From an uncultured Christensenellaceae bacterium (GTDB taxonomy: Bacteria; Bacillota; Clostridia; Christensenellales; UBA3700): DNA of 64,000 nt. The notes beneath the pieces were generated by a model. That model was not told where the DNA came from and did not search any database. It worked only from the letters and a program-made list of their open reading frames with translations. Both the position numbers and the translations under genes were made by a program. The stretch covers positions 54,248 through 118,247 of the forward strand of contig CAJUOU010000003.1 in NCBI GenBank assembly GCA_910588545.1, in the 5' to 3' direction. Shown piece after piece: positions 12,640 through 54,160 of this stretch. Within the stretch, counting starts at the first letter, position 1. Each line of letters starts with the position of its first letter.

Positions 12640-13938
12640 TCAACCTTTGTTTTTCTTAATAACTTTTGCTCTTACAAGAGTACTCTCCTTTCCGTTTGTA
12701 GACGGAATATACAATTTTTCATCCCTTAAACTATCTGGCAGATACTGTTGCTCAACCCAACCTCCAAAGGAATGCGGATATTTGTACCCCTCCACTTTTT
12801 CAACCTTAAAATTTGCATCGCGCAAATATAACGGTACAATGTCATCTTTTGATTTATTGACAAGTTCGACAGCTTTATCCAAAGCGTTTACCACGCTGTT
12901 TGACTTGCTTGCCTCACATACATAAATAATACTATTTACAAGTGGCAGTCTACCCTCGGGCATACCAATATTTTGAATTGCAAACATTGCCGAAGTTGCC
13001 ATAAGTTGTGCCATAGGGTCTGCCATACCAACATCCTCTGCACTATGAGCAATCAGTCTCCTTGCAATAAGCATTGGGTCACAACCGCTTTCAATCAAAC
13101 GTATTGCCCAATATACCGCGGCATCCGAATCACTACCACGAAGACTTTTGCAAAATGCACTAAGCATATCGTAATACATAGATTCGTCTATCGAAAGTGC
13201 CTTTTTTTGTATAGACTCCTCTGCGATATTCTTATTGATAATTATCTTACCTTGGCTGTCGGGTTGAGTAGTAACAACTGCAAGCTCCAACGCATTGTAA
13301 GCAGTACGCAAATCCCCATCACTTGCCCATACTATATGGTTAAGTGCCTCATCGGTTATTTTTATCTCATAGTTACCCAAACCATTTTCCTTATCCGACA
13401 AAGCTTTATTTAAAGCTTGCTTAATATCTTGGGAGTTAAGCTTTTTAAACTCGAATATCCTACACCTTGAGACAATAGCCCTTGTCATTGATATAAACGG
13501 ATTTTCGGTCGTTGAGCCTATAAATACGATATAACCTTGCTCTATCCCCGCAAGCACTGAGTCTGATTGTGCTTTATTCCATCTATGGCACTCGTCAAGC
13601 ATAAGATAAGTTTTTTTGCCGTACATTTTCAATCTTTCTTTGGCATCTTCTATAACTTTTTTAGCCTCCGCAACACCGCTGGAAACTGCATTCAACCTTA
13701 CAAAGTCTGCCTTTGTCGTGTTTGCGATTATATTTGCCAAAGTAGTTTTACCGCACCCCGGCGGTCCGTAAAATATAATGCTACCAAGGCTATCCGCCGC
13801 AATAGCTCTTCTTAACAACTTGCCTTTGCCCACAATATGAGTCTGCCCAACAAAATCATCAAGACTTGTCGGTCTCATCCTTTCCGCAAGCGGTGCAAGT
13901 TTACTTGTATTATCCATAAAATCAAACAAATTATCCAT
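12640..13938 (-). CDS. rarA: Replication-associated recombination protein A (AAA+ ATPase)
   Basis: LAERMRP...GPPGCGKTT...LDECHRWNK...ALRGSDSDAAVYW, typical of MgsA/RarA. Confidence 0.92.
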   Translation of the reverse strand: MDNLFDFMDNTSKLAPLAERMRPTSLDDFVGQTHIVGKGKLLRRAIAADSLGSIIFYGPPGCGKTTLANIIANTTKADFVRLNAVSSGVAEAKKVIEDAKERLKMYGKKTYLMLDECHRWNKAQSDSVLAGIEQGYIVFIGSTTENPFISMTRAIVSRCRIFEFKKLNSQDIKQALNKALSDKENGLGNYEIKITDEALNHIVWASDGDLRTAYNALELAVVTTQPDSQGKIIINKNIAEESIQKKALSIDESMYYDMLSAFCKSLRGSDSDAAVYWAIRLIESGCDPMLIARRLIAHSAEDVGMADPMAQLMATSAMFAIQNIGMPEGRLPLVNSIIYVCEASKSNSVVNALDKAVELVNKSKDDIVPLYLRDANFKVEKVEGYKYPHSFGGWVEQQYLPDSLRDEKLYIPSTNGKESTLVRAKVIKKNKG

Positions 13939-14096
13939 ATAAACATTTTACACCTAATTATTAGCCGTTGTCAATAGTTATCAAAACTATATTTTATCAC
14001 AAATTATTATATATTAAACGCTTAATAATTTATATAGCACAATTTAAATGTATTAATCCGAAAGTTAAATATGCCTATTTAAGCCTAATTAATTTA

Positions 14097-14269
14097 ACAT
14101 AGAATAAGTATATCTATGTACAAAATCGAAGATTTTTTGAGTTTAAATATATAATTTTTGTATGCTTAAAGTAAAGAGTTTACAAAACCTTTATCATAAC
14201 GTTGACATTATCTTACTTTTTAGTTTAAAATATACATATAATATGTACATAGATATACTTATTCCATGT
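14097..14269. promoter_or_regulatory. Candidate invertible promoter element (inverton), copy 1
   Basis: IR-L ACATAGAATAAGTATATCTATGTACA at 14097-14122. IR-R at 14244-14269 is its reverse complement with 1 mismatch. The core carries TTGACA (14202-14207)-18-TAAAAT (14226-14231) reading toward +. Confidence 0.5.
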
Positions 14270-14420
14270 ACCCAAACTTTACATTAAAGGCAAATATTTA
14301 ACCCCAATAGTCCCGATTTTTGATAGGATTATTGCAGTGAACAGCACTTTTTGCCAACTTGAAACTTTACACAAAAAGTTACACCCCAAAATTAAATGTT
14401 TCGGGGTGTATTTTATTTTT
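14238..14420 (+). ncRNA. Candidate ~180-nt sRNA (copy 1), from the core promoter to an intrinsic terminator
   Basis: Predicted TSS ~7 nt after the -10. Hairpins: GGCAAA/TTTGCC (14289-14294 with 14350-14355) enclosing a 9-bp stem (14305-14313 with 14326-14334), then AACTT/AAGTT (14356-14360 with 14376-14380), then terminator ACACCCC...GGGGTGT plus T-run (14381-14420). No plausible ORF. Confidence 0.4.
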
Positions 14421-14569
14421 AAGATTTATATCTTCTATCAAAATGCTAGAAAAAATGTGGCTCATTTAATGATTATCTGCTTAATCAACTTTTATCTTAA
14501 ATTGCATTAGGCATTAAATTATCTTTATACCAAAAACCATTTATTGCTATATAAGTTAACTAACAAAAA

Positions 14570-14602
14570 ATATCGGGGTGAGATTCACTCCGATATTTTT
14601 TG
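14570..14602. terminator. Bidirectional terminator after the minus-strand gene 14682-16016
   Basis: 11-bp stem ATATCGGGGTG / CACTCCGATAT (one G-U pair) flanked by A-run and T-run. Confidence 0.65.
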
Positions 14603-14681
14603 TTAATTAAATTAAAAACAACACTTGTCGCAATTATTCTAAAAATTATAATCTTAATCAATCGTATTGACTGCTAAATTA

Positions 14682-16016
14682 TTACCTTTTACCCCAATAG
14701 TCACTCGCCTTTGTGGTTATAATATGTGTAGGGGTTATTTGTCCCGTCTCATCCATAACAATTTTTGTACCTCCAAAAAAGTAGCTTGAATTCCAAGGCT
14801 TAGGGGACGGACCTGCTTTTAAGCCATATCCGTACATTATATTGTCATATTCAAATACTATATCATTTTCGTGGTCGTGACCTACAAACCAACCTTTTAA
14901 TCCCAAATCTTTCATACTGTCGACCATACCTGTATTGTATAGTGCGTGTCCCGGAACATAAGCAAACCTGCCTAAAATTCCCTTTAACTCTTTCCCGTCA
15001 ACAACAGGATAACTGTTATCGCTATCGCTAGCGGGTTTAAACTCCGGAGTGTTACCGCTTGGCGGGTTATAAGCACCGCTAATCGTCCAATACCCCTCAC
15101 TATCCTGCTTTTGCAAATCATCGCTACTACTATTGTCTTGGATTTGTCCGTCAAGTCTGCCGTTTGCTCCTGCCACATATTTAAGCAATACATTTCCCAT
15201 TTCATAAGGCGCACAATGTGTAAAGAATATACTTGGCACAACGCTGCCCGATAATTTGTTTATGTTTTTAGCTTGCCATTTACACCACTCAATTTGTGCG
15301 TAAGGGAATGGCCTTTCCTTATTGTTTCTGCCCTCTTTTTCGTAAACGGAGTTTTTTAATTCCTTTGAATAGTTTGCATAAGCACTATTATCCAACATAT
15401 AAAGTGACTGAACTATTTTGTCCCCCTCTTTTACATTTATGACATAGTTGCCAAGCAAATCGCCATACTCGTCGCCCAAATTAGTTGGACCTTTTTGAAA
15501 AAGACAATGTCCGCCGTTTTCGCGAGAGGCTTTTAAATATTGGTCTCCCGACCAATTAGGAGTTGCGCGCATTTCGTTATCGTGATTACCAAAAACAGGC
15601 GCCCACAAAAAATCATAGTTTGCAGCCAGCTCCTCAATTTTGTTAACAAAAGTTTTTAAAAGCTCAGGCACACCCACGCCCGAAACATTATCTCCTGTAA
15701 AAACAACCAAATCCGGCTCTGCTTGCATTATAACTTTTTCCGCTGTTTCAAATGCAAAATTATTATCCTTACCGCTACTCCAAAGTTGCATATCGGTCAG
15801 TTGAACTATTACAAAATCTTTATTCGCCTCTTTTTGCACAACAACCGAATGTGTGTTTATATCGTACGCAGAGTTAGGACCAAGCCATAAATTTTCGTAC
15901 TTTTTGCCTTTAAGAGGTATAAACAATACGCATACAGTTACGATTAGACTAACCAAAACAATACTGCAAATACTACCTACAATGCAAATAAATTTTTTGT
16001 TTTTTACAGATAACAT
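14682..16016 (-). CDS. Membrane-anchored calcineurin-like metallophosphoesterase
   Basis: N-terminal TM helix, then TGDNV, GNHDNE and GHDHEND motifs. Start moved to MLSVKNKK (ATG 16016), which has an AAGGGAGAA RBS. Confidence 0.8.
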   Translation of the reverse strand: MLSVKNKKFICIVGSICSIVLVSLIVTVCVLFIPLKGKKYENLWLGPNSAYDINTHSVVVQKEANKDFVIVQLTDMQLWSSGKDNNFAFETAEKVIMQAEPDLVVFTGDNVSGVGVPELLKTFVNKIEELAANYDFLWAPVFGNHDNEMRATPNWSGDQYLKASRENGGHCLFQKGPTNLGDEYGDLLGNYVINVKEGDKIVQSLYMLDNSAYANYSKELKNSVYEKEGRNNKERPFPYAQIEWCKWQAKNINKLSGSVVPSIFFTHCAPYEMGNVLLKYVAGANGRLDGQIQDNSSSDDLQKQDSEGYWTISGAYNPPSGNTPEFKPASDSDNSYPVVDGKELKGILGRFAYVPGHALYNTGMVDSMKDLGLKGWFVGHDHENDIVFEYDNIMYGYGLKAGPSPKPWNSSYFFGGTKIVMDETGQITPTHIITTKASDYWGKR

Positions 16017-16228
16017 TTTTTCTCCCTTAATAGATAATTGCACAAAAAACAATTAAAAATTATATAGATAGAGTATATTTCTGTAATAATTATATATTTA
16101 ATTTAAAATATTGTCAATATGGAATTAATAAAAAAATTAATTTAAAAAGTTAAAAATTCTATTGCTTTTTTAGCAATAAATTATAAAAAATTTAGAAAAT
16201 TGCGACTCGTCGCTGTCTTTATCCTATC

Positions 16229-17143
16229 TTACCGTCTAAGTAGTTTTCCTACTCTGTTCATCATTGACGTTTTGTGGTCAAACATCGAGTGTGCATATCT
16301 ATTTAACGTAATTGTAGGGTTTGCATGTCCCAAAATTTCCGACAATGTTTTAACATCCATACCGCACTCTAACGCACGTGTTGCAAAAGTATGTCTTAAG
16401 GAGTGGAAGCCCTTGTGAGCAATGCCCAAATCCAACAACATTTTTTCAAAAAACCTTTGATATGTCCTTACACCCGAGCCATAGTCTGTCCTGCCTGGGA
16501 TAACATACTTGGACTCCGCATTTCTTCTCATAACTTTAAGATAAGGCACAAGCTGTTTAGGCATTGGTATTATCCTTTGAGAAGTATGTGTCTTAGGGGT
16601 GTCGATTACTTTTACATAGCCGCTCTCCCCCCAACTGTCGTGACAAGACTTGGAAACTTTGATAACGCACTTTCTCATATCCAAATCCGACCACTCAAGT
16701 GCCAACAACTCGCCTAAACGAATACCTGTATAAAGTGTCAAAAGCACACCGAAATACTTTGGTTTGTCAATAAAGACGATAAAGTTTTCAAGCTTTCTTT
16801 GCTCATAGATTGAAAAACACTCCACACGTTTTAGCTGTTGCTTTGGACGGGTAAGATAGTTTGAATATTCCTTGTCTATTATATCCAATTCCACAGCCTT
16901 GACAAGCGACAACTTTAATAGTGAAATCATTCCGTGAATCGTTGCACTTGCATATCCTTGATACATTTTTGTGTTGACAAATTGCTGCAACACAGCTGTC
17001 GACAACTCGTTCAAGTGATATTCACCTAGCTCAGGCAAAATATGAGCTTTTGCTAAATGACAATACTTTTCGTATGTCCTTTCCTTTACTTGTGACTTTA
17101 CATAGCAGTTAAGCCACTCACTGCACCATTGTTTGTAAACCAT
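16229..17143 (-). CDS. Tyrosine site-specific recombinase (phage-integrase/Xer family), orphan
   Basis: Full catalytic set visible: TGIRLGE (Arg), HSLRHTF (His-x-x-Arg), LGHANP (His), RYAHS (Tyr). An N-terminal SAM-like core-binding domain is present. Start at MVYKQW (ATG 17143), with GGAGG 8 nt upstream. No phage, IS or ICE genes are adjacent. Confidence 0.9.
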   Translation of the reverse strand: MVYKQWCSEWLNCYVKSQVKERTYEKYCHLAKAHILPELGEYHLNELSTAVLQQFVNTKMYQGYASATIHGMISLLKLSLVKAVELDIIDKEYSNYLTRPKQQLKRVECFSIYEQRKLENFIVFIDKPKYFGVLLTLYTGIRLGELLALEWSDLDMRKCVIKVSKSCHDSWGESGYVKVIDTPKTHTSQRIIPMPKQLVPYLKVMRRNAESKYVIPGRTDYGSGVRTYQRFFEKMLLDLGIAHKGFHSLRHTFATRALECGMDVKTLSEILGHANPTITLNRYAHSMFDHKTSMMNRVGKLLRR

Positions 17144-17384: not shown

Positions 17385-17489
17385 ACTCATATACAAAGCT
17401 ATTTGTAAAAAATATTGTTTATATCTATTAAATAAATATAAATTCTTTTACAAATGCTTACAAACAAATTAATTTACGGGAATTATATT

Positions 17490-18527
17490 ATGAAAAAACA
17501 CAAATCACTACTGCTTATTTTGATTATTGCGGTTGCAATACTGACTTTTTCTCTTTCTGCGTGTGCAAAAACGCAACCTGCGGAGCTTACACCCGAGAAA
17601 GCTGCTTTTTACAAAAGTTGGATGAGTCATTTAGATGATAACACTCGCATAAAAAACGTAGCGATACTCGGCTCTCACGATAGTGGTATATCCACTACAA
17701 CAAGCATTATTAAGGATATGACTAAAACTCAAGACCTTACCATTGCAGAACAATTAAATTACGGCTGCAGATATTTTGATATTCGGGTAAGCAAAAATAA
17801 AAAGGGCGATTTGACAATATTTCACAGCATTGATACTACGGGCGAAAAATTTACCGATATAGCAAACGGTCTTGTAAATTTTTTAAAGGAAAATCCAAGC
17901 GAGTTTTTAGTGCTTGATTTTCAACACTTTAACAATGAATCTCAACTATCTGTAATAGATGTTATAAACAGTAGCGGACTTATTGATTATGCCATAAAAA
18001 ACAATACAACTATGTCCGACCTTGATTTTGCAGATAGTTTGACTGTACAAGATATGAGAGGAAAAGCGATATTAATTTGGGGTAGCAATCAAGCAAATGA
18101 TAGTACTTACCCTTATCTTTTTAGACGAAACAACGATAAATGTACCATCGAAAACGCCGTGTTGGACTCGCTATACCTAAGTGAAGACAACAAAAAACCA
18201 AGTGAAAAATTTATTGAGGAAACAATACCCAAGTACTTTGAGCATATCATCGCAACAGAAAAGGGCTTAACCGTACTTCAAGCACAGCTGACTGCAAAAG
18301 GATTGGATAATCTTAAAAATTTGGAAAACAGTCACAACGAAAATATGAGCAAATTTATAAGAAGCATTGGGGATAATAAAATTTACCTTAATGCGGTAAA
18401 TATAATTATGCGTGACTTTATCGGCAGTGATTTGGAAAAGACAAACAGCGTACTTTACCTAAACGTACTGAAAAACAATATAAAAGCTGTTAGCACCGCA
18501 TTATTTTCAAACCATACGAAAAATTAG
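17490..18527 (+). CDS. PI-PLC X-domain (PLC-like phosphodiesterase) lipoprotein
   Basis: Signal peptide with lipobox (LTFSLSAC). ILGSHDSG and CRYFDIRV...IFHS motifs match the PI-PLC X box. Start placed at MKKHKSLL (17490). Confidence 0.75.
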   Translation: MKKHKSLLLILIIAVAILTFSLSACAKTQPAELTPEKAAFYKSWMSHLDDNTRIKNVAILGSHDSGISTTTSIIKDMTKTQDLTIAEQLNYGCRYFDIRVSKNKKGDLTIFHSIDTTGEKFTDIANGLVNFLKENPSEFLVLDFQHFNNESQLSVIDVINSSGLIDYAIKNNTTMSDLDFADSLTVQDMRGKAILIWGSNQANDSTYPYLFRRNNDKCTIENAVLDSLYLSEDNKKPSEKFIEETIPKYFEHIIATEKGLTVLQAQLTAKGLDNLKNLENSHNENMSKFIRSIGDNKIYLNAVNIIMRDFIGSDLEKTNSVLYLNVLKNNIKAVSTALFSNHTKN

Positions 18528-18650: not shown

Positions 18651-20222
18651 ATGTTTAAAGAAAAATTAAAAGAAGTGTTTGACAGTAAACTTAAAATTGC
18701 CGCAACAATATGCAGTGTAGTTTGGTTTATCCTATATTTTGCACTCGGAGCAAATATTTTTGATAATATGTGGAATACATCGCCTGCCCTTCCTTTTATC
18801 GGAGGAGTATTTGCACTTATTCCTATAATATTGCAAACGGTAAATTTGCTGTTTTGGAAAAACAAGTGGCTTGATATATGCGTGATTGCGGAAAGCTTGG
18901 CATTTATTTTGCTACATTTTTTCTTTTTTGCATTTGTGTTATCCAAACTAAGTTATTTTTTAATAACGGGCACTCCTTATTTTATTACTATAGGGTTGAT
19001 TGCTTTAATTGCTTTTTTTGTTTTCGTATTTCCCAAACTTCAAAAAATATTAAAACAAATAACTGCTGTAGGACTGACCGTAATTATTTTGATAATATGT
19101 ATAATATGTTTGTTTGATGCAACACCTTTCTACGTAAGCGCTGGGGCTACGGTATTTGCAGTAGAAGACGAATATCAAATTGCTTTTGCAACTTCACATA
19201 AGTCCACGGGAGCTATAGAAATAGACGGAACAACTTACTACGACCAAACCGACGGACAAAACAACATATCTACGTTGCACAAAATTAGTGTTCCTGCAGA
19301 CAAATTGGACATCAATAAAAAATATTCCGTAATAACACAAAGCGTACCTATCAATTCCGCTTATCTTCCATCCAAAGGCAGAGTGATTAAAAACGATTAT
19401 ACTTTTAGACCGATTGATGAGAGTGACGGTATTCAAATTTATAACCTATCCGATACTCACGAGTGTATTGGCGGGCCTGTAAATGCAGCATCTTACTTTG
19501 GCGATAAATTAGATTTGTTGATTTTAAACGGAGATATAATAAACGATATTTCGGGTGAGTCACAAATAGCGATAATATATAAAATAGCAAACAAAATTAC
19601 AAACGGTAGCAGACCCGTAATATTTACCCGCGGCAATCACGAATGCAACGGCAAATTGGCAGCAGACCTTGGCAAATATGTCGGCTCTACCAATAACGGA
19701 ATGTACTATACCTACAGTATTGGAAATACTATTTCCATGTTAGTATTGGACACCAATAACGATATGGCGGACGACAATAAATTGCTTAGCCCTATAGCCA
19801 ACTTTGATATTGTACGTAAAGAACAAACGGAATGGATAAAACAAAATTCCGATTGGAACAAGGACTATCAATTCAGATTTGTTGTAGCACACATGGCTTA
19901 TCCGTTATCCGGTTATATTGAAGATAAAAATTCTTGGAGCGGTTGGGCAAAAGAATTAGTAAGCCTTACAAACGGAAAAACAGATTTGTTGCTAAGCGGA
20001 CACTCTCACAAAACTGACTTTATAAAAGCAGGTACGGATGACAATAAGATTGCCGATTTCCCTGTACTTCGCGGGTCGCTAAGGAGCAACAAGTACAGTA
20101 ATAAAGAGGGCGTTTCTCCAAACGAGTTCACAGGCACAGCGATTGAAATAATAGGCGGCAAAATAAATGTCAAGTTTACCAATGCCAAGGGCGAAATCAA
20201 AAACGAATTTTGGCTTAACTAA
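18651..20222 (+). CDS. Polytopic membrane-anchored metallophosphoesterase
   Basis: About five N-terminal TM helices, then the SDTHE, NGDII, RGNHE and SGHSH metallophosphatase motifs. Confidence 0.8.
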   Translation: MFKEKLKEVFDSKLKIAATICSVVWFILYFALGANIFDNMWNTSPALPFIGGVFALIPIILQTVNLLFWKNKWLDICVIAESLAFILLHFFFFAFVLSKLSYFLITGTPYFITIGLIALIAFFVFVFPKLQKILKQITAVGLTVIILIICIICLFDATPFYVSAGATVFAVEDEYQIAFATSHKSTGAIEIDGTTYYDQTDGQNNISTLHKISVPADKLDINKKYSVITQSVPINSAYLPSKGRVIKNDYTFRPIDESDGIQIYNLSDTHECIGGPVNAASYFGDKLDLLILNGDIINDISGESQIAIIYKIANKITNGSRPVIFTRGNHECNGKLAADLGKYVGSTNNGMYYTYSIGNTISMLVLDTNNDMADDNKLLSPIANFDIVRKEQTEWIKQNSDWNKDYQFRFVVAHMAYPLSGYIEDKNSWSGWAKELVSLTNGKTDLLLSGHSHKTDFIKAGTDDNKIADFPVLRGSLRSNKYSNKEGVSPNEFTGTAIEIIGGKINVKFTNAKGEIKNEFWLN

Positions 20223-23471: not shown

Positions 23472-23555
23472 ACAATTAGTTTGTTCATTTTATTAAAATT
23501 ATTACTACATTTTATAAATAACCCGATTTTCGCAGCATTTTTTTATTTTTACAAT

Positions 23556-23588
23556 GAAAAACAAGGTCAAAATTTTGACCTTGTTTTG
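23556..23588 (-). terminator. Terminator of the surface-protein gene
   Basis: Perfect palindrome AACAAGGTCAAAATTTTGACCTTGTT with flanking A/T runs, ~10 nt after the stop at 23598. Confidence 0.7.
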
Positions 23589-23597
23589 CTTTTGTTG

Positions 23598-26396
23598 TTA
23601 AAAGAATAAGTTTATCATAAGTAATTTATCTATTACATTTCTTACAATTTCTGCATCTGCAGATGTTACATTGCCTTTGTTGACTACCATGCTTGCCAGC
23701 TTCTTTTCCGTACTCAAACTTTGGTATAATGTATCGTCACTTGCTAATTGTCTTAGGTATGATACATCGCTTGCACTTATCCTGCCGTCTCCGTTCACAT
23801 CCCCTAATACGGATAAAGTTATTCTTTCCACTTTACTACCCGATTGGTACTCCATATACCAACCTGTTCCAATAGCTAACTCTTTGCCGTTATTCAGTAA
23901 ATTTTCATTCACATTAGCATTGCCTTTGTCATATATTAACATGCCTTTACTGTTGTATATTTGCAACTTGGTTATATCAAACATTAAATTATTGACAAAT
24001 TCGTTTACGCTTGTATTAGGAGTAATATTGCCTAAAATCAATTTGCCGTTGTTATTTGTTGCAACTACTTCGCTATCATTTACCAATCGATAAATACCAT
24101 TTTCCCTATAACTTTTTCTAACCAATTTATCTCCGTCCTGTTCCAAATATAAAAAGTCATAAATGCCGTTTTTAATCATACTTTTATCTTCGATTGTGTA
24201 GGTTAAACTTATCTCCTCCGTTCCGCCTGTTGCCCACTCGTAATTACTCGTGTCTTTAATAGTTATTTTTGCGGTATGAACACCTGCCGTCTTAGCCTTA
24301 TTTCCCTCGATTTCCATTTTGTCATCATCAAAATTATCTGGCGTAAATACATGTTCCTCTCCGTCCAAAATGTAGTTTGCACTTCCGCTTGGAGCAGTCA
24401 ATTTTGCTTTTGTAATATTATAATATTTTGTATTTGAGGAAGCTTTTATCTTATAGTTTTTATTGCTTAAGGCAATGGCTACAGCTTTATACCCGCTACC
24501 TGCATTTATATTGCCGCCTTGTATGGTAACAGTACACTCGCTATCCTCCGCTATGCTTGCGGCTGGGCTTTGCACTTTTCCGTTATATACCAGATTGTCA
24601 TTATTCCATACTACATTTACTTCCTTAGGCAAAATGGTAAACATAAATGTAGGATTTTTATAATTACCTGCAGAATAAAAAGCATAACTTCCCGCATCCC
24701 TCAATGTACGACTTGTAAATGGAGCATCTTCTCCTTGCATATAAATTTCGCCTGTTGCGGAAATTACATAATCACGCCCCGTGTAGTTTACTGTCGCATT
24801 AGACCCGCCGTTTGTTTGACCACCTGTCCACTTCCAAGTCAAGTCGGTAGCAGTATTATCTTCATCTTTCAAAATAGCCTCTGTGCCCGAAGTGCCTATT
24901 CGTTTATTGCTGTTTGAAAAGAAATATCTGCTTGGAGTGATATCGTAATTGCCACCTGTATAATATCCGTAGGTAAATTCTCCTGTGTAATCGCTACTCA
25001 ACAAAACACCGACATGTGTTGTACTACTTGAAGTAGCCAATTTTCCTACTACCCTAATCCTCTCGCCTTTTGTCAAAAAAACATCTGCAGCACCGCTTGA
25101 GTTTGTATTATTATAAATTTGAGCACCTGCACCGATTGCAATAGTACCGTATGCACTGGTTACAGCGTGGTGTGTATTTATACCTGCTCCGTCCTTAGCA
25201 GAAATATTATTGTAAATTTTGCAGTTTCTTATAATAACATCACTTGACACAATAGTAATAGCTCCGTATGTATCAAAACTATTATTCCTAATTTCGCCGC
25301 CATTAAAATTAAATGTACCCACTTGCGTGTAAACTACTCCTGCACCGCTTTTATTAGCCAAATCATTCATAAAATAATTTCTTTCTATTATACCGTCGTC
25401 CATATTGAACTCTTTACAAACAACACGCATAGCGCATCCCCATCCATGGGCGGCATTTCTAGATATTAATCCACCGGTTATATTTACCGTAGATTTGTCA
25501 TTATAAGCACTTATGGCTCCACCCGTATCAATAGCAGAATTATTATGTATAATTCCTCCGTTAATTTGCAATTTTTTTGCTTGAAAATTTATTGCTCCGC
25601 CATCCCCTGAAATTATTCCATTATGTACGCCGATTGCTTGGTTATTAATTATCATTCCGCTATTAATTGTAATCGAGCTGTTTATTCCGGAATAAATAGC
25701 ACCTCCTCCTTGCGAGCCTTGTGCAATATTTCCGTAAATCATCCCGCCGTTCATCTCAAAGTAGCCCTCGTAGCTAACAACTAGTGCTCCACCGTCATTT
25801 GTAATATATCCGCCTGTTATACCACCCGCACCATAACTTTGCAAATTTGATTCCGGATTTTTATTATACGCATCCAAAACTTTTTGCTCATCGTATTTAC
25901 TATCCATAAGAATCAAATTGCCCCTTACATACATAACATTACCCCAATTAACCGCTACAGTCAATTTTCTGTCAATTTTAAAACCATTTAAATCCAATGT
26001 AATTGTCGCTCCTTCCGGAACAGCAATGCTACCATTGAAAAAGCTATTTTCATAACTGCCAAAATAGTTATTGCCGCTAGTAGGAGCAATCCAATCCCTT
26101 GACAATACAACTTTGATATGCAAGCCTTCCAATGACTCGACAATTACGTCATTCCACTCTTCGGCAATCTCTTCACAAGTAGTTCCTTTAAATATTACTT
26201 CCTTATCTATTTTACCGACAGTACTTTTTGTGATATTATTTTTGGAGTCTATGCTAACATTATCGATATTACTTGTAGGTGCACTTTCCAAAACATTTTT
26301 GTTCGCATTTGCAAAAACTACTATCCCGATTAATAATAGACAAGATATTACTGACACAAAAAATATTATTCCTGCCCTTTTAATAATCTTTGCCAT
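23598..26396 (-). CDS. Large cell-surface protein: signal anchor, Pmp-like GGAI beta-helix repeats, MBG-type Ig-like repeats, C-terminal dockerin
   Basis: Repeated GGAI/GGAL motifs (GGALVV, GGGAIYSG, DGGAINF, TGGAISAY). YNGKVQSP and YKAVAIALSNKNYKI blocks. C-terminal GDVNGDGRISASDVSYLRQ...VNKGNVTSADAEIVRN is a type-I dockerin pair. Start set at MAKIIKRAG (ATG 26396, GGAGG at 26404-26408) rather than the track start at 26447. Confidence 0.85.
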   Translation of the reverse strand: MAKIIKRAGIIFFVSVISCLLLIGIVVFANANKNVLESAPTSNIDNVSIDSKNNITKSTVGKIDKEVIFKGTTCEEIAEEWNDVIVESLEGLHIKVVLSRDWIAPTSGNNYFGSYENSFFNGSIAVPEGATITLDLNGFKIDRKLTVAVNWGNVMYVRGNLILMDSKYDEQKVLDAYNKNPESNLQSYGAGGITGGYITNDGGALVVSYEGYFEMNGGMIYGNIAQGSQGGGAIYSGINSSITINSGMIINNQAIGVHNGIISGDGGAINFQAKKLQINGGIIHNNSAIDTGGAISAYNDKSTVNITGGLISRNAAHGWGCAMRVVCKEFNMDDGIIERNYFMNDLANKSGAGVVYTQVGTFNFNGGEIRNNSFDTYGAITIVSSDVIIRNCKIYNNISAKDGAGINTHHAVTSAYGTIAIGAGAQIYNNTNSSGAADVFLTKGERIRVVGKLATSSSTTHVGVLLSSDYTGEFTYGYYTGGNYDITPSRYFFSNSNKRIGTSGTEAILKDEDNTATDLTWKWTGGQTNGGSNATVNYTGRDYVISATGEIYMQGEDAPFTSRTLRDAGSYAFYSAGNYKNPTFMFTILPKEVNVVWNNDNLVYNGKVQSPAASIAEDSECTVTIQGGNINAGSGYKAVAIALSNKNYKIKASSNTKYYNITKAKLTAPSGSANYILDGEEHVFTPDNFDDDKMEIEGNKAKTAGVHTAKITIKDTSNYEWATGGTEEISLTYTIEDKSMIKNGIYDFLYLEQDGDKLVRKSYRENGIYRLVNDSEVVATNNNGKLILGNITPNTSVNEFVNNLMFDITKLQIYNSKGMLIYDKGNANVNENLLNNGKELAIGTGWYMEYQSGSKVERITLSVLGDVNGDGRISASDVSYLRQLASDDTLYQSLSTEKKLASMVVNKGNVTSADAEIVRNVIDKLLMINLFF

Positions 26397-26420: not shown

Positions 26421-26593
26421 ACATAGAATAAGTATATCTATGTACAAAATCGAGGATTTTCGGGAAAGTTTTTTAAAGTTTTTGTAGCTTTTTTGTAAAG
26501 CAATTACAAAATGTTTAATTAAACGTTGACAAAAGTTTACTTTTGACCCTATAATATATATATAAAATGTACATAGATATACTTATTCCATGT
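26421..26593. promoter_or_regulatory. Candidate invertible promoter element (inverton), copy 2, abutting the surface-protein start
   Basis: IR-L at 26421-26446 and IR-R at 26568-26593 (1 mismatch). The core carries TTGACA (26526-26531)-18-TATAAT (26550-26555) reading + and away from the gene, whose ATG lies 24 nt outside IR-L. Confidence 0.55.
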
Positions 26594-26744
26594 ACCCAAA
26601 CTTTACATTAAAGGCAAATATTTAACCCCAATAGTCCCGATTTTTGATAGGATTATTGCAGTGAACGGCACTTTTTGCCTACTTTAAACTTTACAAAAAA
26701 AGTAACACCCCAAAACTAATCGTTTCAGGGTGTATTTTTTATTT
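26562..26744 (+). ncRNA. Candidate ~180-nt sRNA (copy 2)
   Basis: Same predicted structure as copy 1. Hairpin TACTTT/AAAGTA (26680-26685 with 26699-26704) shows a compensatory A-T to T-A swap relative to copy 1. Terminator ACACCC...GGGTGT plus T-run at 26705-26744. Confidence 0.4.
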
Positions 26745-26854
26745 AAGTCAATTTTAAATTTGTCAAAAATTAAGACAAAAAATGGCTTATTTATAAGTTG
26801 TTGATAGAAATTTAAGCAATTAAAATCGCCTTGCATAACTGCAGAGCGTTAGAT

Positions 26855-32681: not shown

Positions 32682-33032
32682 TGGTGGAACTGACGGGAGT
32701 TGAACCCGTGTCCAAACGGGGATTGACTATGCTTTCTTCGTGCGCAGTGCAAATTTTGAATTTTTCGCGATGTCGCCTTTTGCACAAGCTACATTTTGAT
32801 GAGGTGTTAATTTATCTTATTGCTCCACACCAAAAGCAATAAGACCTTCCTATCTAAATGATGCCACTTACCTATCCGATAGGTCTATAGGGGTGACAAG
32901 CTCGCTAATTAAGCAGCGAAAGCTAATTGATTATTATTTTTTGCGTTTATATTTAACGTTCGTTTTTACGTAGTCGAACCTACGGCACGCTTACACAATC
33001 TCACACCCACTTGTCGAATCCGTAACAGCCCC
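32682..33032 (-). ncRNA. ssrA: tmRNA (SsrA)
   Basis: 5' GGGGCTGTTACGGATTCGACAAG... and 3' ...GGACACGGGTTCAACTCCCGTCAGTTCCACCA (T-arm, acceptor, CCA). Tag reading frame GCA AAA AAT AAT AAT CAA TTA GCT TTC GCT GCT TAA (32909-32944) gives AKNNNQLAFAA. Confidence 0.93.
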
Positions 33033-46952: not shown

Positions 46953-47032
46953 CCCTTCTACTTTATATACGAATAACTTGGCAATTTTTATTCAAAAAAA
47001 AGAAGAATTTTTGAAAATCTCAAAAATTCTTC
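46953..47032 (-). promoter_or_regulatory. Repeated module: 13-bp-stem terminator plus TGAATA-N17-CGTATA promoter (copy upstream of the ABC gene)
   Basis: Hairpin GAAGAATTTTTGA-aaatc-TCAAAAATTCTTC (47002-47032) plus a U-run. -35 TGAATA is the complement of 46989-46994 and -10 CGTATA the complement of 46966-46971. About 78 bp are near-identical to 51655-51736. Confidence 0.6.
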
Positions 47033-47071
47033 ATGTACATTGTTTTAATTAGTCTACACCATTATAATTAT

Positions 47072-50000
47072 TCAATTTAAAAACATATCAAAAAATTCAT
47101 TTGAGTAAGCAGAAGGCAAATCTACTATAGAATCTTCAACTTGATGTTGTCCTGCAACTGGTTTACTTACTTGATCACCTACAGGTCCCACAGAAGTGGT
47201 GCCATCACGACCATATTCACCATTTTTACCATCGCTGCCATTGTTTCCTATAATTCCAGCATTTCCTCCTTTACCACCAGTACCTTTGTGACCAATATTG
47301 CCATTTTTACCATTGATACCACCATCAGTAGTTAAAGTTTCAACATTAGTTCCTTGAGCAGCACTTCCTGCAACTCCATTGGTTCCACCATTGCCACCTT
47401 TACCACCATCACCAGGGTCACCTGTTCCAGTAAACCAATCTCCACTAACATCATCAGCACCTTTGCCGCCATTACCACCATTGCCGCCATTGCCACCGTT
47501 TCCACCGTCGCCACCTTTAATATAATAATTAGAACCACGAGCAACATTAATTATATTATTTGATGCATAAATAGCATATCCGCCATTACCACCGTTTCCA
47601 CCAGCAGATCCATCTTTTCCTGGAGCGCCATCATCACCCTTTATAGGTTTAAAAATACTACCTCTTGGAGGTCTTTCACCATCTTTACCATTTTCACCAT
47701 TATAGCCGCTACTACCATTTCCGCCATTACCACCATAGATATAAACTTTAGAATCAGAATTAAAAGCCATTAATGTAACTTCCTTAGCTTTAATTCCATA
47801 ACCGCCATTAGCACCAGCTACACCATTACCACTTCCATCAGCTCCATTTCCGCCTTTAATGGTAACTGAACCAAAGTAAGTTAAATAAATTGCTGAACTT
47901 TCACAATCAATAGCATTAACTGCACCTCCAGTTGGTGCTTTTATATCAATATTTTTCAAGCCAAATAGAATTGCACCATTTCTGTTTAAAACATTAATTT
48001 TTGCAGTTATTGTCATATATCCATTGCCAATAAATGTTATCATTTTTACAGAAGAGTTTATATTTATAGTATACTTCATACTACTTGAAGCATTAGAAAA
48101 ATCTACTATAGCAACTCTATCAGTGATAGACAAATTCTCACTTGCTGTAATAACTCTTCCTTCCCATTCTACTACTAATTCAATATCTTTAAATATTTCT
48201 TTTGTATTTTCAAAACTATTACCATTATAACTCCATTTTACAAATAAATAACCAAATTTTTGTGGAGTAGCAAGTTCTGTGTTAAACACTGGATTGTCTA
48301 CTGTAAATTCATTTGGCAAATCAAACACAACATCGGCATACCTAAAATTATATGTAATATTATATTTAATTAAATCATATTGAGGGTATAATGTGTTGCT
48401 ATCAATTTGATCTTCCCATACCCATGTTTTTCTTGCATCAATGATAAGATTTCCACCTATTGGTTTATCAAACCAACCTTTAAATATCTTACCTTCTATT
48501 TCTGGAATTGCTATATCCAATGTTTGTCCATATTCAATAAATACTTCTTGTCCCCCATTATCACCGATAATAATTTGATATTTTGATGTTTCATATTTTG
48601 CTAATAGACTAATATCGTCATAAAAATCAATCATATCATTAACATTCAATCTTGTTCCATTATATTCCCAACCACAAAAATCTTTACCAGTTATTACTGG
48701 AGCAACAATATAGTTATCAAACTTAGACCCATAATACTCTGTCCTACTGCCAATAAAATTATTATTTATATCATAAAAATTGATTGTTAATTCTTTTGCT
48801 TTTAATGTATTAGTCAAATTAACAAAACAGATATTCTCTTGATATTCCTGCAATCTAGCTTCTTTTACATACAATATAACTTTATCATCAAAACAATCCC
48901 CATCTAAAACTGGTGGAATATCAGAAGTAAATATTATGCTTTCTAAATCTGTTGCACCTTTAAATGCTGAAACTCCTATAGAATCAATTTTATCAGACAA
49001 TATAATTTGAGTAGGGACATTGTTATCAAAACAATCTCTTCCTATTCTATGTATATTATCTGGAATTTTTACAATTCTTTCTGTTCCAAAATACTTTAAC
49101 AAAACTTTTCCTAAAATTACAAATTTACTTGCATTATTTGAATACCAAGGGGTATCTAACAAAGCGGTAATATCACAATCAATAATATTATTTGCATTAT
49201 TAATATATGCCAATGAACTATTTGTGAATGTTTCAGGTCCAATAAACTCTACTTGATTTAAATTAATAGTTCTAATATTTTTGTTGTTTTTAAATAATCT
49301 AGCATTTAAAATTGTTACTTTATCAGGAATTGTTATTTCAGAAACTACAGGATTTGCATATATTGCCACTTTTTTATCTGTATCTGTAACATTACATTTA
49401 ATTAAAATATTATCTTGCCAAACATAATTTGCATTGCTTTTAAAATTAGTAATCATAGTGCCTAAAAAAGCATCATCTTCAATACTATTAACACCATAAG
49501 GTATGATAAAATCAGTTATTGCTGTATTTGCAAAAGCACATTTAGTTATGATATTAAGAGAGGTATTAGCACTTAAATTTACATTGTTCAAATTACTACA
49601 TCCTGCAAATGCTCTTTCGCCCAAATTGTTCAAATATGGCAAATTGATAGAAGTTAATCCTAAACAATTTTCAAAAGCTGAATTGCCAATATTTTTCAAC
49701 TTATCCATAGCACTTCCTATATTAATACTTGAACAATTATAAAATGCTTCTGCGCCAACATTTTGTAAATTACCTAAGTCATCTAATGCTTCCAATTTAG
49801 TACAATTTTTAAAAGCATAATCTCCAATGTGTGTTACATTGTTCAAATTAGTTATAGATTTTAAATTAGTACAATTTTCAAAAGTTCCTATACCTATATT
49901 TTTAATGTTTTTGGATAAAGCCAAATTTTCAATACTATTATTAGCAAATACATAATCACCTAATTCAGTAACATTTTTTTCATAAATTGTATCAGGAATA

Positions 50001-50782
50001 GTTGTTATACCTTTTGCTTCGGGAATAAGTAATCTATTAATTTTTATTTCATTATTATTAATTTCCACTGCTTCGTATAGAAATTGCGGTCTTAATCCTA
50101 TAACATTTGATTCTATTAATATGTCATATTCTGCCTCTCCTTGTGGTGAATCATTAAAAATTTGCACACAATCACCTTGTGAAACATGTTGAATGATTTT
50201 TTTTGCAATTTCTTGATCACTTAAATCTAAATATTCAAGTCCATATTTTCGCCCTTTCTCATTATTAAATAAATCCATTTCTTTATCAACACCTTGCGAA
50301 TCATCTCCACTTTCATGTGCATCTGCATAAGTTTTAGCATCATCAACTCCCACATATTTAACCATTAATGCATTCCAATATGTATGTCTAAAAGCATCCC
50401 CATTATCCTTATAAAGACTTCCATCATAATAATATAGTGCTTCAGCTTTTGCTAACTTACTACACTCATATATTTGCAATGCAGCGCCTGGTTTTGTAAA
50501 TATAAATGTTTTTTCATCAGGCGAAAGATCTCCATAAAAATCATGAAATTTATCATATAAAGATTTTTCATCTTCAGTTTCATTATTATCTGTTTCATCA
50601 TTAATAGATTGCCTCTCTATTTGATTTACACTCAATTCACTAAACTTTGCTTTGTTGATATTAGCAAATTGCATAGTTTTTCCTATTAAAATTGTCCAAC
50701 TAAATATTGCAATAATCAAAATTGTTGGAATCAATAAAAACTTAAAAAGTTTTGAATTTTTAATTCTTTTATGTTTATCCAT
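47072..50782 (-). CDS. Giant surface protein: TM anchor, DUF6973-like domain, BspA-type LRRs, Listeria-Bacteroides repeats, Gly-rich/collagen-like C-terminus
   Basis: GDAFRHTYWNALM...DAHE...MDLFNNEKGRKYG block. More than 10 repeats of the IGxxAFxNCxxLxxI type. FCGWEYNG and FKGWFDKPIGG repeats. 14 uninterrupted G-X-Y triplets (GINGKNGNIGHKG...GRDGTT). Confidence 0.8.
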   Translation of the reverse strand: MDKHKRIKNSKLFKFLLIPTILIIAIFSWTILIGKTMQFANINKAKFSELSVNQIERQSINDETDNNETEDEKSLYDKFHDFYGDLSPDEKTFIFTKPGAALQIYECSKLAKAEALYYYDGSLYKDNGDAFRHTYWNALMVKYVGVDDAKTYADAHESGDDSQGVDKEMDLFNNEKGRKYGLEYLDLSDQEIAKKIIQHVSQGDCVQIFNDSPQGEAEYDILIESNVIGLRPQFLYEAVEINNNEIKINRLLIPEAKGITTIPDTIYEKNVTELGDYVFANNSIENLALSKNIKNIGIGTFENCTNLKSITNLNNVTHIGDYAFKNCTKLEALDDLGNLQNVGAEAFYNCSSINIGSAMDKLKNIGNSAFENCLGLTSINLPYLNNLGERAFAGCSNLNNVNLSANTSLNIITKCAFANTAITDFIIPYGVNSIEDDAFLGTMITNFKSNANYVWQDNILIKCNVTDTDKKVAIYANPVVSEITIPDKVTILNARLFKNNKNIRTINLNQVEFIGPETFTNSSLAYINNANNIIDCDITALLDTPWYSNNASKFVILGKVLLKYFGTERIVKIPDNIHRIGRDCFDNNVPTQIILSDKIDSIGVSAFKGATDLESIIFTSDIPPVLDGDCFDDKVILYVKEARLQEYQENICFVNLTNTLKAKELTINFYDINNNFIGSRTEYYGSKFDNYIVAPVITGKDFCGWEYNGTRLNVNDMIDFYDDISLLAKYETSKYQIIIGDNGGQEVFIEYGQTLDIAIPEIEGKIFKGWFDKPIGGNLIIDARKTWVWEDQIDSNTLYPQYDLIKYNITYNFRYADVVFDLPNEFTVDNPVFNTELATPQKFGYLFVKWSYNGNSFENTKEIFKDIELVVEWEGRVITASENLSITDRVAIVDFSNASSSMKYTININSSVKMITFIGNGYMTITAKINVLNRNGAILFGLKNIDIKAPTGGAVNAIDCESSAIYLTYFGSVTIKGGNGADGSGNGVAGANGGYGIKAKEVTLMAFNSDSKVYIYGGNGGNGSSGYNGENGKDGERPPRGSIFKPIKGDDGAPGKDGSAGGNGGNGGYAIYASNNIINVARGSNYYIKGGDGGNGGNGGNGGNGGKGADDVSGDWFTGTGDPGDGGKGGNGGTNGVAGSAAQGTNVETLTTDGGINGKNGNIGHKGTGGKGGNAGIIGNNGSDGKNGEYGRDGTTSVGPVGDQVSKPVAGQHQVEDSIVDLPSAYSNEFFDMFLN

Positions 50783-50792
50783 ATTTTATCTC

Positions 50793-51479
50793 CTATTTTG
50801 TTTCATTCTGCTTAAAATGAAAAATTAAATCTTCATTCCAACGAACTTCCAATAATTCATCTTTATAAAAATAAATTATTTGTTTTTTATCTGTTGTTTC
50901 ACTATTTAATATATTAATCTTACCATCTTCATCTTGGCTAAAGTCATATTTAACTCCACCAAACTCTACACCACCATCAACAATAAGCTCTATTGATATT
51001 TCGTTATTTGCCAATAAATCTTCTTCTACCAAATTATATGTGCCTTTGGGTATTCCATAATTTTCTAAAATCTTCAGTTTATCTTTCTTATAACGTAAAA
51101 TTACATGTGGATAATGGACTTCCAATATGTTTTTTTCATAAAAATATTTAATTAGTATTCTTTTTTCTACAGGTACATTTTTATTACCTAGACATACTTG
51201 TCCATCTTCGCCTTGATAAATATCAGATGAATAAGTATCAATGTAATTTTCAATAAATTCAATATCATTATCAATATAAATCACATCAAAAATGGCTTCG
51301 GCACTATCTATGTCTTCATCAATCAAACTATAATATCCAGTAGGAATACCAAATAATGACTCATTAGATGGTTTTCTTAAATAAACATCTATAAAAGCAC
51401 ACCCTGACAAAAGCATACTCATTGTCACAAGTAACAAAGATATAATTATTGGAACTATAACTATTTTTGTTTTTTTCAT
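50793..51479 (-). CDS. Lipoprotein with an internal tandem ~90-aa duplication
   Basis: Start at MKKTKIVIV (ATG 51479, GAGGAG RBS) and lipobox LLSGC. The two halves align (IPTGYYSLIDED...ILEVHYPHVILRYKK versus IPKGTYNLVEED...LLEVRWNEDLIFHFK). Confidence 0.65.
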   Translation of the reverse strand: MKKTKIVIVPIIISLLLVTMSMLLSGCAFIDVYLRKPSNESLFGIPTGYYSLIDEDIDSAEAIFDVIYIDNDIEFIENYIDTYSSDIYQGEDGQVCLGNKNVPVEKRILIKYFYEKNILEVHYPHVILRYKKDKLKILENYGIPKGTYNLVEEDLLANNEISIELIVDGGVEFGGVKYDFSQDEDGKINILNSETTDKKQIIYFYKDELLEVRWNEDLIFHFKQNETK

Positions 51480-51654
51480 CTTATTTCTCCTCATTTTTGC
51501 TAAGTTATAATTATTAAATAAATTATAACTCAAATATTTAAGTTGCTGCAAATTATTTTTTTTAATTTTCTATGTTTTCATATCCATCACTATCTCCTTT
51601 AAATAAAATATTTTATTTTTCTATTGAATAATTTTTATTGCTTAATAAATCACT

Positions 51655-51736
51655 TCCCTTTCTACTTTATATACGAATAACTTGGCAATTTTTATTCAAA
51701 AAAAAGAAGAATTTTTGAAAATCTCAAAAATTCTTC
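51655..51736 (-). promoter_or_regulatory. Repeated module: terminator plus TGAATA-N17-CGTATA promoter (copy upstream of the lipoprotein and giant-protein genes)
   Basis: Hairpin at 51706-51736. -35 is the complement of 51693-51698 and -10 the complement of 51670-51675. Confidence 0.6.
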
Positions 51737-51761
51737 TTTTTTCGTGATGTTTTAGCCGTTT

Positions 51762-52448
51762 TTATGCTAGTAATTTACTAATCTCTTCTTGCCAATCTGT
51801 TTCTCCTTCCAAATCAAAACAAATTCTGTACACATGACCTTTATAGCTAAATTTAGTAAAAGATTTATATAAATATATTTCTTCATCAAACTTTGTATTA
51901 TAATTTATTTTAACACCATTAATTATAATTTCACTAGATAGTGATTCATAGTTAGACAAAAATTCAAAAATATAATTATCTTTTAGTTCCACAAATAATT
52001 TAATTTGTTCATAAGTATCAAGCAAAATCACATCTTGACTCAATAAAACATCTTTTTCTCCATCCTTATAAATTTTAACCCTTTCTTCGATATTTTTATA
52101 ATTTTTAAAATACAACAAATCCAAATTTCTATCTTCATTATATTTTTCAACTGAACCATATTTATAAATATTATTTTCGGAATATGAATAATGAATTGGT
52201 GGCTCTAATGGATTGTTTGGTTTTGATAAAATTATACCAAGAAAAATACCAAAACTAATTATAATAAGCAAACAACAAATTGTTGCCGTAATGATTAATT
52301 GCTGTTTTCTATTATCAACTGCTTTTACTTCGCAGGCGTCATTCCAATGAGTTTCTTCCTTTGCTTTGTGCAAAATTTCATAGTTTATCTCTTGTTTATT
52401 GTCATCTTGCTTTTCCATAAGTTTTGCTAACTTTCTTTTTGTAAACAT
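51762..52448 (-). CDS. Single-pass membrane protein (possible anti-sigma/signalling partner)
   Basis: Start at MFTKRKL (ATG 52448, GGAG upstream, 1 nt after the upstream stop). One central TM helix (LIITATICCLLIIISFGIFLGIIL). No zf-HC2 motif. Confidence 0.55.
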   Translation of the reverse strand: MFTKRKLAKLMEKQDDNKQEINYEILHKAKEETHWNDACEVKAVDNRKQQLIITATICCLLIIISFGIFLGIILSKPNNPLEPPIHYSYSENNIYKYGSVEKYNEDRNLDLLYFKNYKNIEERVKIYKDGEKDVLLSQDVILLDTYEQIKLFVELKDNYIFEFLSNYESLSSEIIINGVKINYNTKFDEEIYLYKSFTKFSYKGHVYRICFDLEGETDWQEEISKLLA

Positions 52449-52449
52449 T

Positions 52450-53301
52450 TTAATATATCTCCACTCCAACAATATCATTAACTGCAGTTGTTCCCTCTAA
52501 CCATATATAGCCGGTAGGAAAATGTTCTAGTCCACTACTGACACTTAAATATGTATCCGTCCTAATTACGTTATTACCATTATAGTACCTAACTTTTTTT
52601 ATGCCATTTGCAATAAGTATATGATTAGCATTATACTCAGTGGTTGTCATAGTTAGGTTTGTATCCCCTATTTCCAAATTTGTTACTAAATTTGACATTG
52701 TAATAAACAATGCAACAGGTTTGCCATTTTTAAAACTATTAGCTATTGCATCATAATCAATCTTGCTACCTTGCCCATAGCCCCTATACGTTATATTATA
52801 TCCTTTATCAACCACATATTCATTCAAACCATTTTTAAATTGCTCTTCTGTTGCACCTGCTCCCGTTGTGTTAACTTTCATACGAAAATACAAGTCATTC
52901 ATAAGGTTTTGTATGTTTGAATCGATTGGCTTATAAACAATATTTCCACCTCTTTTTAAAAAAGAACTAAAATTCGGTATTATATTTTCCAATGTAATAT
53001 CATAATAACCAACAATAATTCCGCCTGCAACTGCTGCACAACCATTTTTCAATACAGAATCAGCATCATAATAATTTGGTGTCTTTGGCGACATTGTTGT
53101 ATCTATAAGCACTTCTTTTCTTGTATAATTCAAAGTCTCATTTCTAGTAGAAAATAAAGATGGTCGAATCTCTGAGTTATAATATATTTCTCCTGCTTCT
53201 TCTGCAAAAACTTCTAATGGCATAAATGTAAAACCCATTACAAAAGCAATCATAATTGCTACAATACTTAATGTTACTACATATAATTTTTTTGTGTTCA
53301 T
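52450..53301 (-). CDS. Secreted papain-fold cysteine peptidase-like protein (C10/C39-like)
   Basis: Signal peptide. Candidate catalytic Cys in KNGCAAVAGGIIVGYYD and His in NANHILIANG. This is recognition-level only. Confidence 0.45.
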   Translation of the reverse strand: MNTKKLYVVTLSIVAIMIAFVMGFTFMPLEVFAEEAGEIYYNSEIRPSLFSTRNETLNYTRKEVLIDTTMSPKTPNYYDADSVLKNGCAAVAGGIIVGYYDITLENIIPNFSSFLKRGGNIVYKPIDSNIQNLMNDLYFRMKVNTTGAGATEEQFKNGLNEYVVDKGYNITYRGYGQGSKIDYDAIANSFKNGKPVALFITMSNLVTNLEIGDTNLTMTTTEYNANHILIANGIKKVRYYNGNNVIRTDTYLSVSSGLEHFPTGYIWLEGTTAVNDIVGVEIY

Positions 53302-53319
53302 ATCCTAGCCTCCACTATA

Positions 53320-53348
53320 TATACGAACAACTTTGCAATTTTTATTCA
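53320..53348 (-). promoter_or_regulatory. Third copy of the TGAATA-N17-CGTATA promoter motif (upstream of the peptidase gene)
   Basis: -35 is the complement of 53343-53348 and overlaps the sigma gene stop codon. -10 is the complement of 53320-53325. GGAGG at 53309-53313 and ATG at 53301 leave an unusually short leader. Confidence 0.45.
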
Positions 53349-53870: not shown

Positions 53871-53910
53871 AAAATCTTATCCTTTGCCAAAGGCTATTAA
53901 ATATAAAAAT

Positions 53911-53939
53911 ATTATATCTTACTTGCCACAGTATGTCAA
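53911..53939 (-). promoter_or_regulatory. Consensus sigma-A promoter of the island sigma gene
   Basis: On the minus strand TTGACA (53934-53939)-17-TATAAT (53911-53916). It lies on the antisense strand of the tkt relic. Confidence 0.6.
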
Positions 53940-53993
53940 GATTTTGTTAAAAAAGCACAAGAAACTTACAACAGGAAACTTGAAAATATATAA
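53913..53993 (+). pseudogene. Relic 3' end of a second, diverged transketolase C-subunit gene
   Basis: 53937-53993 translates to QDFVKKAQETYNRKLENI-stop, against QDIVEKAQEAYKRKLSNM-stop for the real tkt end (43934-43990). Weaker similarity continues ~8 codons further upstream, and a stop at 53904-53906 closes the frame. Confidence 0.7.
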
Positions 53994-54064: not shown

Positions 54065-54160
54065 TTAAAACGCCTTTTAAATTTAAAATCATTTAAATAA
54101 CTTCTTTCATAGGTGTTGTTTTATTTTAGAGCATTGTAACTTTTAAGTTGCATTTAAAAA

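Follow-up and report, generated by a model that had tools for sequence, protein, structure and literature searches.

A tyrosine recombinase from a mouse-gut Christensenella-like bacterium that very probably flips two 121-bp promoter segments to turn large secreted surface-protein genes on and off

The FimB and FimE recombinases of E. coli are encoded beside the element that they act on, fimS. In C. difficile, the tyrosine recombinase RecV acts in trans on several repeat-flanked switches of surface-protein genes, including cwpV, flgB, and others (PMC2784873, PMC5903667). At cwpV the OFF state predominates and about 5% of cells are ON (PMC2784873). In Bacteroides, invertase genes are enriched within 5 kb of the switches that they presumably flip (PMC11892184).

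Here we analyze a 64-kb stretch of DNA (the window) from a mouse-gut Christensenella-like bacterium. Christensenellaceae-type bacteria are widespread gut commensals and are hard to culture. The literature searched contains nothing on phase variation in Christensenellaceae-type bacteria, on Christensenella switches, or on the arm motif described below. We find that a recombinase encoded in the window very probably flips two 121-bp promoter segments, and so turns large secreted surface-protein genes on and off. The recombinase family is so far undescribed; the kind of switch, phase variation by promoter inversion, is well known.

The recombinase gene and its neighborhood

The recombinase gene starts at an ATG with a GGAGGA ribosome-binding site ahead of it (an alternative ATG at 17158 would give a protein of 309 amino acids). 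A preliminary description of this DNA had reported a 304 amino acid recombinase with a complete catalytic set, and we agree: YTGIRLGE, HSLRHTF, LGHANP, and RYAHS are all found in the translation, the ORF lies on the minus strand, and all 18 members of an alignment have the five catalytic residues R142, H247, R250, H273, and Y283. The features of the region are collected in Table 1.

Table 1. Coordinates of the recombinase gene, its neighbors, and the two switches in the 64-kb window
Feature	Position	Strand	Description	Basis
Switch 1, orphan copy	14097..14269		Arms 14097-14122 (the 26-mer) and 14244-14269 (inverted partner, one mismatch); 121-nt core
Switch 1 core promoter (predicted)	14202-14231	+	TTGACA-N18-TAAAAT	Consensus match
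Switch 1 conserved leader, outside the switch	14270..14423		Invariant block 14312-14336; terminator hairpin 14380-14410
Metallophos phosphoesterase gene	14682..16016	-	Directly downstream of the recombinase gene	Pfam, gene order
Tyrosine recombinase gene, candidate invertase	16229..17143	-	304 aa	Translation, Pfam, NCBIfam, PHROG, structure comparison
PI-PLC-X-domain gene	17454..18527	+	Upstream of and divergent from the recombinase gene	Pfam, gene order
Second Metallophos gene	18651-20222		After the PI-PLC-X gene	Pfam
Gene under switch 2	23598..26396	-	932-aa secreted/surface protein	Pfam, gene calls in L001-L009
Switch 2 gene-proximal arm	26421..26446		ACATAGA / ATAAGTATA / TCTATGTACA (the 26-mer)	Two inverted half-sites around an asymmetric center
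Switch 2 invertible core, 121 nt	26447..26567		Predicted promoter TTGACA-N18-TATAAT at 26526-26555, plus strand	Sequence
Switch 2 gene-distal arm	26568..26593		Inverted partner; outer half-site ACATGGA, one mismatch vs the proximal arm
Switch 2 conserved leader, outside the switch	26594..26747		Invariant block CCCGATTTTTGATAGGATTATTGCA at 26636-26660; terminator hairpin 26705-26733

The protein belongs to the PF00589 tyrosine recombinase superfamily (Pfam Phage_integrase, 94.2 bits against a cut-off of 27.1) and also matches Phage_int_SAM_3 (Pfam, 50 bits). Its two domains are a SAM-like core-binding domain and a catalytic domain. The lack of an arm-binding domain follows from the extent of two matches: the match to phrog_1 spans profile positions 167-451 of 611 only (PHROG), and the closest solved structure, Tn1549 Int (6en0/6emy/6emz, E = 2e-19), is matched by residues 119-298 only.

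We compared the protein to models of described recombinase types, of which XerC, XerD, and integrases with defined sites had been named at the outset as identities that would speak against an invertase. NCBIfam scores fall far below the cut-offs for XerC (TIGR02224, 63.6 bits vs 335.15), XerD (TIGR02225, 47.5 bits vs 329.6), FimB/FimE-type invertases (NF007371, 20.9 bits vs 222), and integron integrases (TIGR02249, 48.2 bits vs 265; NF011946, 31.7 bits vs 435), and likewise for XerS and XerA. Assignment to phage or conjugative-element integrases of the lambda/Tn916/Tn1549 type was likewise rejected, based on the lack of an arm-binding N-terminal domain and of mobile-element genes in the 64 kb. 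In phage and plasmid collections there is no relative above 35% identity, and the best one is 35% identical.

The exact protein is listed in 600 blocks of a public assembly collection, and the gene order around it is the same in 10/10 loci read. Species-representative genomes contain at least 551 related loci of this family.

One member, P0023 (59% identical; L024-L027 and L034), is found beside genes for a relaxase/NikA, Bro-N, and a large serine recombinase, and resembles part of a mobilizable element. Even so, an inverted-repeat switch of its own adjoins it, located before a Flg_new-repeat surface protein.

These data bear on the possibility that the window's recombinase is an integrase left behind by a decayed mobile element, or a chromosome-dimer resolvase of the Xer type, and is unrelated to the switches. 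Phage integrase families (phrog_1) are its best profile matches, an integrase (of Tn1549) is its closest solved structure, and P0023 adjoins relaxase and serine recombinase genes; against this, the protein has no arm-binding domain and no mobile-element genes around it, its scores are far from those of Xer proteins (XerC 64 bits vs 335, XerD 48 vs 330), the exact protein occurs in so many blocks and has constant neighbors in all 10 loci read, and even P0023 has a switch of its own. We regard this reading as largely refuted and very unlikely.

The window contains no phage, IS, transposon, or conjugation genes, which confirms and extends what had been described for the immediate surroundings of the recombinase. 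Also absent is a second recombinase, based on phmmer searches against all ORFs of at least 80 amino acids and Pfam searches of all long ORFs in the window. Housekeeping genes make up the remainder of the 64 kb (rpoB, gap, pnp, tmRNA, transketolase, and ABC transporters). The tmRNA gene is at 32682-33032 on the minus strand (Rfam RF00023, 173 bits).

There is a block of low GC content at approximately 47000-55000 (24-29% GC over 48-55 kb). It encodes a 1236 amino acid BspA-type leucine-rich-repeat protein with DUF6973, an ECF-type sigma factor, a TetR regulator, and three ORFs without a Pfam match. No switch arms are found in this block.

The Metallophos gene next to the recombinase has a fixed consensus promoter (TTGACA-17-TATAAT, minus strand, 16117->16089). 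The preliminary description found no copy of the inverted repeat beside the recombinase gene, and only imperfect 23-mers are present there. One, at 16062-16084 (3 mismatches), comes after the fixed promoter of the Metallophos gene, and the other, at 16282-16304 (2 mismatches), lies inside the recombinase coding sequence, in the codons for NRYAHSM. With the four switch arms set aside, only three further 23-mers with three or fewer mismatches occur in the 64 kb. The two near the gene may be what is left of an adjacent switch in an ancestor, or may be due to chance. A relic switch between the recombinase and Metallophos genes was considered and rejected: the 23-mer at 16062-16084 is not conserved in the sister species and is compatible with chance.

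Anatomy of the switches and their leaders

The 26-mer ACATAGAATAAGTATATCTATGTACA occurs twice in the window, each time with an inverted partner that has one mismatch. These are four switch-arm matches, compared to 0 in 100 shuffles. Switch 1 is 1.96 kb and switch 2 is 9.28 kb from the recombinase gene, in line with the roughly 2 and 9 kb given earlier. The arms follow one plan: ACATAGA, nine central bases, then TCTATGT(ACA).

Both copies have the features of a promoter-type invertible switch, with 26-nt arms around a 121-nt segment that contains an outward-facing consensus promoter at one end. We predict the core promoters and the expressing orientation based on the promoter consensus. The same design, with the promoter at one end of the core, recurs in the diverged cores of other species. 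In the window, both core promoters face away from the minus-strand side. Switch 2 is considered OFF, since its core promoter faces away from the minus-strand gene. Its proximal arm is the same in ON and OFF assemblies.

In the 932 amino acid protein encoded next to switch 2, GGAI-type beta-helix-like repeats are accompanied by a signal anchor at the N terminus and a dockerin type I domain at the C terminus. The ribosome-binding site and ATG of its gene are 25 nt from the proximal arm. No large gene follows switch 1 in the window's strain. Four other loci (L004, at 12872-16353, L005, L007, and L008), which carry a recombinase identical to that of the window, have an extra dockerin-type gene of approximately 970 amino acids along with a third switch; both are located between the Metallophos gene and mgsA.

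Whole cassettes of leader, switch, and gene are gained and lost between strains. The insertion/deletion junction of the ~970 amino acid cassette is approximately 125 nt from the arm on its outer side, within the shared leader. Site-specific excision was rejected as the source of this gain and loss based on the position of the junction, which is not at the arm; because it is in the shared leader, homologous recombination is favored.

Some metagenome loci (L112-L173) come from related genomes with more switch-controlled cassettes. At the 5′ end these cassettes have the switch and leader in common, and at the 3′ end of the large gene approximately 500 nt (compare window positions 23550-24050); their middles are variable. 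In L150, a switch arm adjoins a homolog of the region at 54.5-59 kb in the window, so switch positions differ between species.

The leader is approximately 150 nt long with a terminator hairpin at its end, and the leader of switch 2 is 86% identical to copy 1. Across species, the blocks CGATTTTTGATAGGATTATTG, TTTACA, and ACTTTACA(C/A)AAAA are conserved in at least 80-95% of 44 distinct leaders. The stem sequence of the terminator varies between species and always pairs (each sequence was folded separately). RNAalifold returned no structure for the leader terminator, from an alignment that had register shifts. Neither the switches nor the leaders match any Rfam family.

With the core in the OFF orientation, transcription from its promoter would enter the arm and the terminated leader and generate an RNA of approximately 190 nt. 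Because the promoter would then transcribe the arm and a conserved, terminated leader, the OFF state could make a functional RNA. It is a tentative and rather doubtful idea that the switch unit does more than flip between ON and OFF, either via such a functional ~190-nt RNA or via the leader acting as a binding region for an accessory protein or the recombinase that sets the strong OFF bias.

Recombinase-repeat pairing and switch orientation across relatives

The preliminary description linked the recombinase to the inverted repeats by inference and proposed a test of their co-occurrence in relatives. We analyzed homologs with 49-59% identity (89 loci, 82 of which were included in the count) and scored an inverted repeat when at least 18/22 positions matched. 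The result is strongly positive. An inverted repeat is present within 330 nt past the stop codon in 54/82 loci, and three control windows of equal size have pairs in 0/72, 0/68, and 0/79. The link now has the backing of these homolog-adjacent switches, of the half-sites that they share with the window, of a module conserved in sister species, and of an inverted form of switch 2 (all below).

In these distant homologs the pair usually begins 25-70 nt past the stop codon, a distance of 95-150 nt usually separates its arms, and the next gene comes after the pair. For 27/54 adjacent switches, the half-site of the window is present in both arms with no more than one mismatch. When 17 switches are aligned in register, their arms match the design seen in the window (ACATAGA, a variable center, and TCTATGTAC). 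Positions 10-13 are the most variable between switches (up to 2.0 bits of entropy). Over positions 9-23, there is one difference in all between arms of the same switch; arm-to-arm mismatches are located in the outer half-site and beyond the repeat. A center that is identical within a switch and variable between switches is the pattern expected of a tyrosine recombinase crossover region.

In L028-L106, one arm often has a degenerate outer half-site (ACGCAGA or TCATCGA, for example; in the window it is ACATGGA), and the center and inner half-site are the same in both arms. The degenerate half-site could impose a bias on the direction of switching.

Two sister species have recombinases that are 89% and 77% identical to that of the window. 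In both, the order is switch and large gene, PI-PLC-X gene, recombinase gene, Metallophos gene, then switch and large gene. The first Metallophos gene of the window and the PI-PLC-X gene are thus members of a module that stays with the recombinase, and the outer neighbors of the module differ. In the arms of the sister species, ACATAGA and TCTATGTAC are invariant, and the central bases vary by species and co-vary between arms. The closest-clade recombinase is not adjacent to its own switches, unlike most of the family.

A different recombinase, with its gene beyond the window, might flip the switches instead; it could be a master invertase or a family paralog, and the recombinase studied here would then serve another target. 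Our view of this genome is 64 kb, RecV and Mpi illustrate that invertases can be encoded far from their own switches (PMC2784873, PMC5903667), and some related genomes have two family members (the pairs L056/L062, L036/L106, and L076/L099 are each from one assembled genome). With half-sites so conserved, paralogs could cross-react. In addition, L023, which encodes a 74% identical homolog between GH123 and Metallophos genes, has no recognizable switch in its 17-kb locus. However, the arms in the window bear exactly the half-sites that accompany this recombinase family in cis, and the recombinase and switch-controlled genes stay together in three species as the outer context changes. We consider an outside invertase unlikely, and infer that the catalyst is the recombinase of Table 1 rather than a paralog.

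Switch 2 is found in both orientations. Two ENA assemblies from runs with neighboring accession numbers (L174 and L175) encode the same 932 amino acid protein, and the 121-nt core of one is exactly the reverse complement of the other, with 0 mismatches. The arms are the same, including the A/G difference in the outer half-site, which stays with the flank, and the next 3000 nt downstream are identical. The core in the window has the orientation of L174 (OFF). In L175 the promoter faces the gene (ON). A second case involves cultured Pumilibacter muris CLA-AA-M08 (L067) and a related assembled genome (L066), in which the switch adjacent to the homolog is inverted. Because the outer half-site differences stay with the flanks, the crossover is placed in the center. 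Both orientations thus occur in nature with flanks unchanged, in L174/L175 and in L066/L067. Additionally, metagenome contig L149 ends in an ON-type junction, in which the proximal arm leads directly into a core at its promoter end, of which the first 13 nt are present.

Most switches of the close clade are in a single orientation. All complete switches in L001-L010 (21/21) are in the orientation of the window, and those with both arms in L011-L022 (14/14) have the same core orientation as each other, so this first survey gave no evidence of inversion. A metagenome scan with a degenerate arm pattern identified 62 stretches that include 25 complete switches, 24 of them OFF; the one scored as ON does not adjoin a large gene and is ambiguous. 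Promoter scoring of the switches adjacent to distant homologs gave 24 OFF, 5 ON, and 20 unclear. Since nearly all of the close clade is in one orientation, switching may be rare, strongly biased, or conditional. Contig breaks at switches were rejected as a sign of heterogeneity, given that the ~330-nt unit is a multi-copy repeat that would break assemblies anyway.

The 173-nt repeat-flanked elements could alternatively be miniature transposon-like repeats or fixed promoter cassettes. They are indeed multi-copy (~330-nt repeats when the leader is included) and are in one orientation in almost all assemblies. Yet the same switch exists in both orientations with its flanks untouched, which refutes this explanation unless L175 is an assembly artifact. 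The constant position 25 nt upstream of the ribosome-binding site of paralogous genes also argues against it, as do arms with identical centers and conserved half-sites, the design of a recombinase core site. We find this explanation extremely unlikely.

Proposed mechanism and comparison with known systems

Our main interpretation, to which we assign a probability of roughly 80%, is that the 304 amino acid protein is a dedicated tyrosine recombinase DNA invertase that acts in trans on the two switches of the window and on the third in some strains. This is judged from sequence comparisons. Each 26-nt arm is a complete core site, with the inverted half-sites ACATAGA and TCTATGTAC around an asymmetric center. 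Recombinase protomers would bind the half-sites in both arms of one switch and bring the arms together, and strand exchange inside the identical center would invert the 121-bp core. In the OFF state, the core promoter would point away from the large surface-protein gene and into the terminated leader. After inversion to ON, the promoter would be approximately 30-60 nt upstream of the ribosome-binding site and would drive the large gene.

Together, a defined site (ACATAGA, a variable crossover center, and TCTATGTAC), a recombinase family, and a natural ON/OFF pair make it possible to predict switches and their targets across the order from genome sequence. The compact pair of recombinase and site is a candidate genetic tool. 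Conceptually, the system is one more member of a familiar class and involves no new principle.

XerC and XerD are similar to the recombinase in size, in two-domain layout, and in having a core site of two inverted half-sites around a short center. They act at a single dif site, whereas the sites here are inverted pairs around promoters. Integrases of the Tn1549/Tn916 type are the nearest by sequence, in the catalytic domain only, and are in the same broad PHROG integrase family; in contrast to them, no excisionase, transfer, or att features are found here.

The invertible promoters of Bacteroides (those of the Mpi serine invertase, and those beside Tsr-type tyrosine invertases) are likewise promoter switches of gut commensals that precede genes for surface structures. 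The phylum, recombinase lineage, arm sequence, and promoter type (a sigma-70 consensus here) all differ. The genes controlled in Bacteroides are capsule or fimbrial loci, compared to dockerin-bearing, beta-helix-like proteins here.

The FimB/FimE and fimS system of E. coli shares a promoter-bearing element, small tyrosine recombinases without an arm-binding domain, and control of a surface structure. The fimS element is 314 bp long with 9-bp arms, compared to a 121-nt core and 26-nt arms here, and FimB and FimE are a biased pair of recombinases, whereas a single recombinase is found here.

RecV is a functional analog: one tyrosine recombinase, several short switches, surface proteins, a gut Clostridia host, and a prevalent OFF state. 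The cwpV switch contains no promoter and acts via a terminator in the OFF transcript, whereas a consensus promoter is predicted inside the core here, as in fimS. The arms of RecV switches are 21 bp and mostly unrelated between sites; here they are 26 nt and identical at all sites. The recV gene is far from its own switches, whereas the distance here is 2-9 kb, and in the family the recombinase and switch are mostly directly adjacent.
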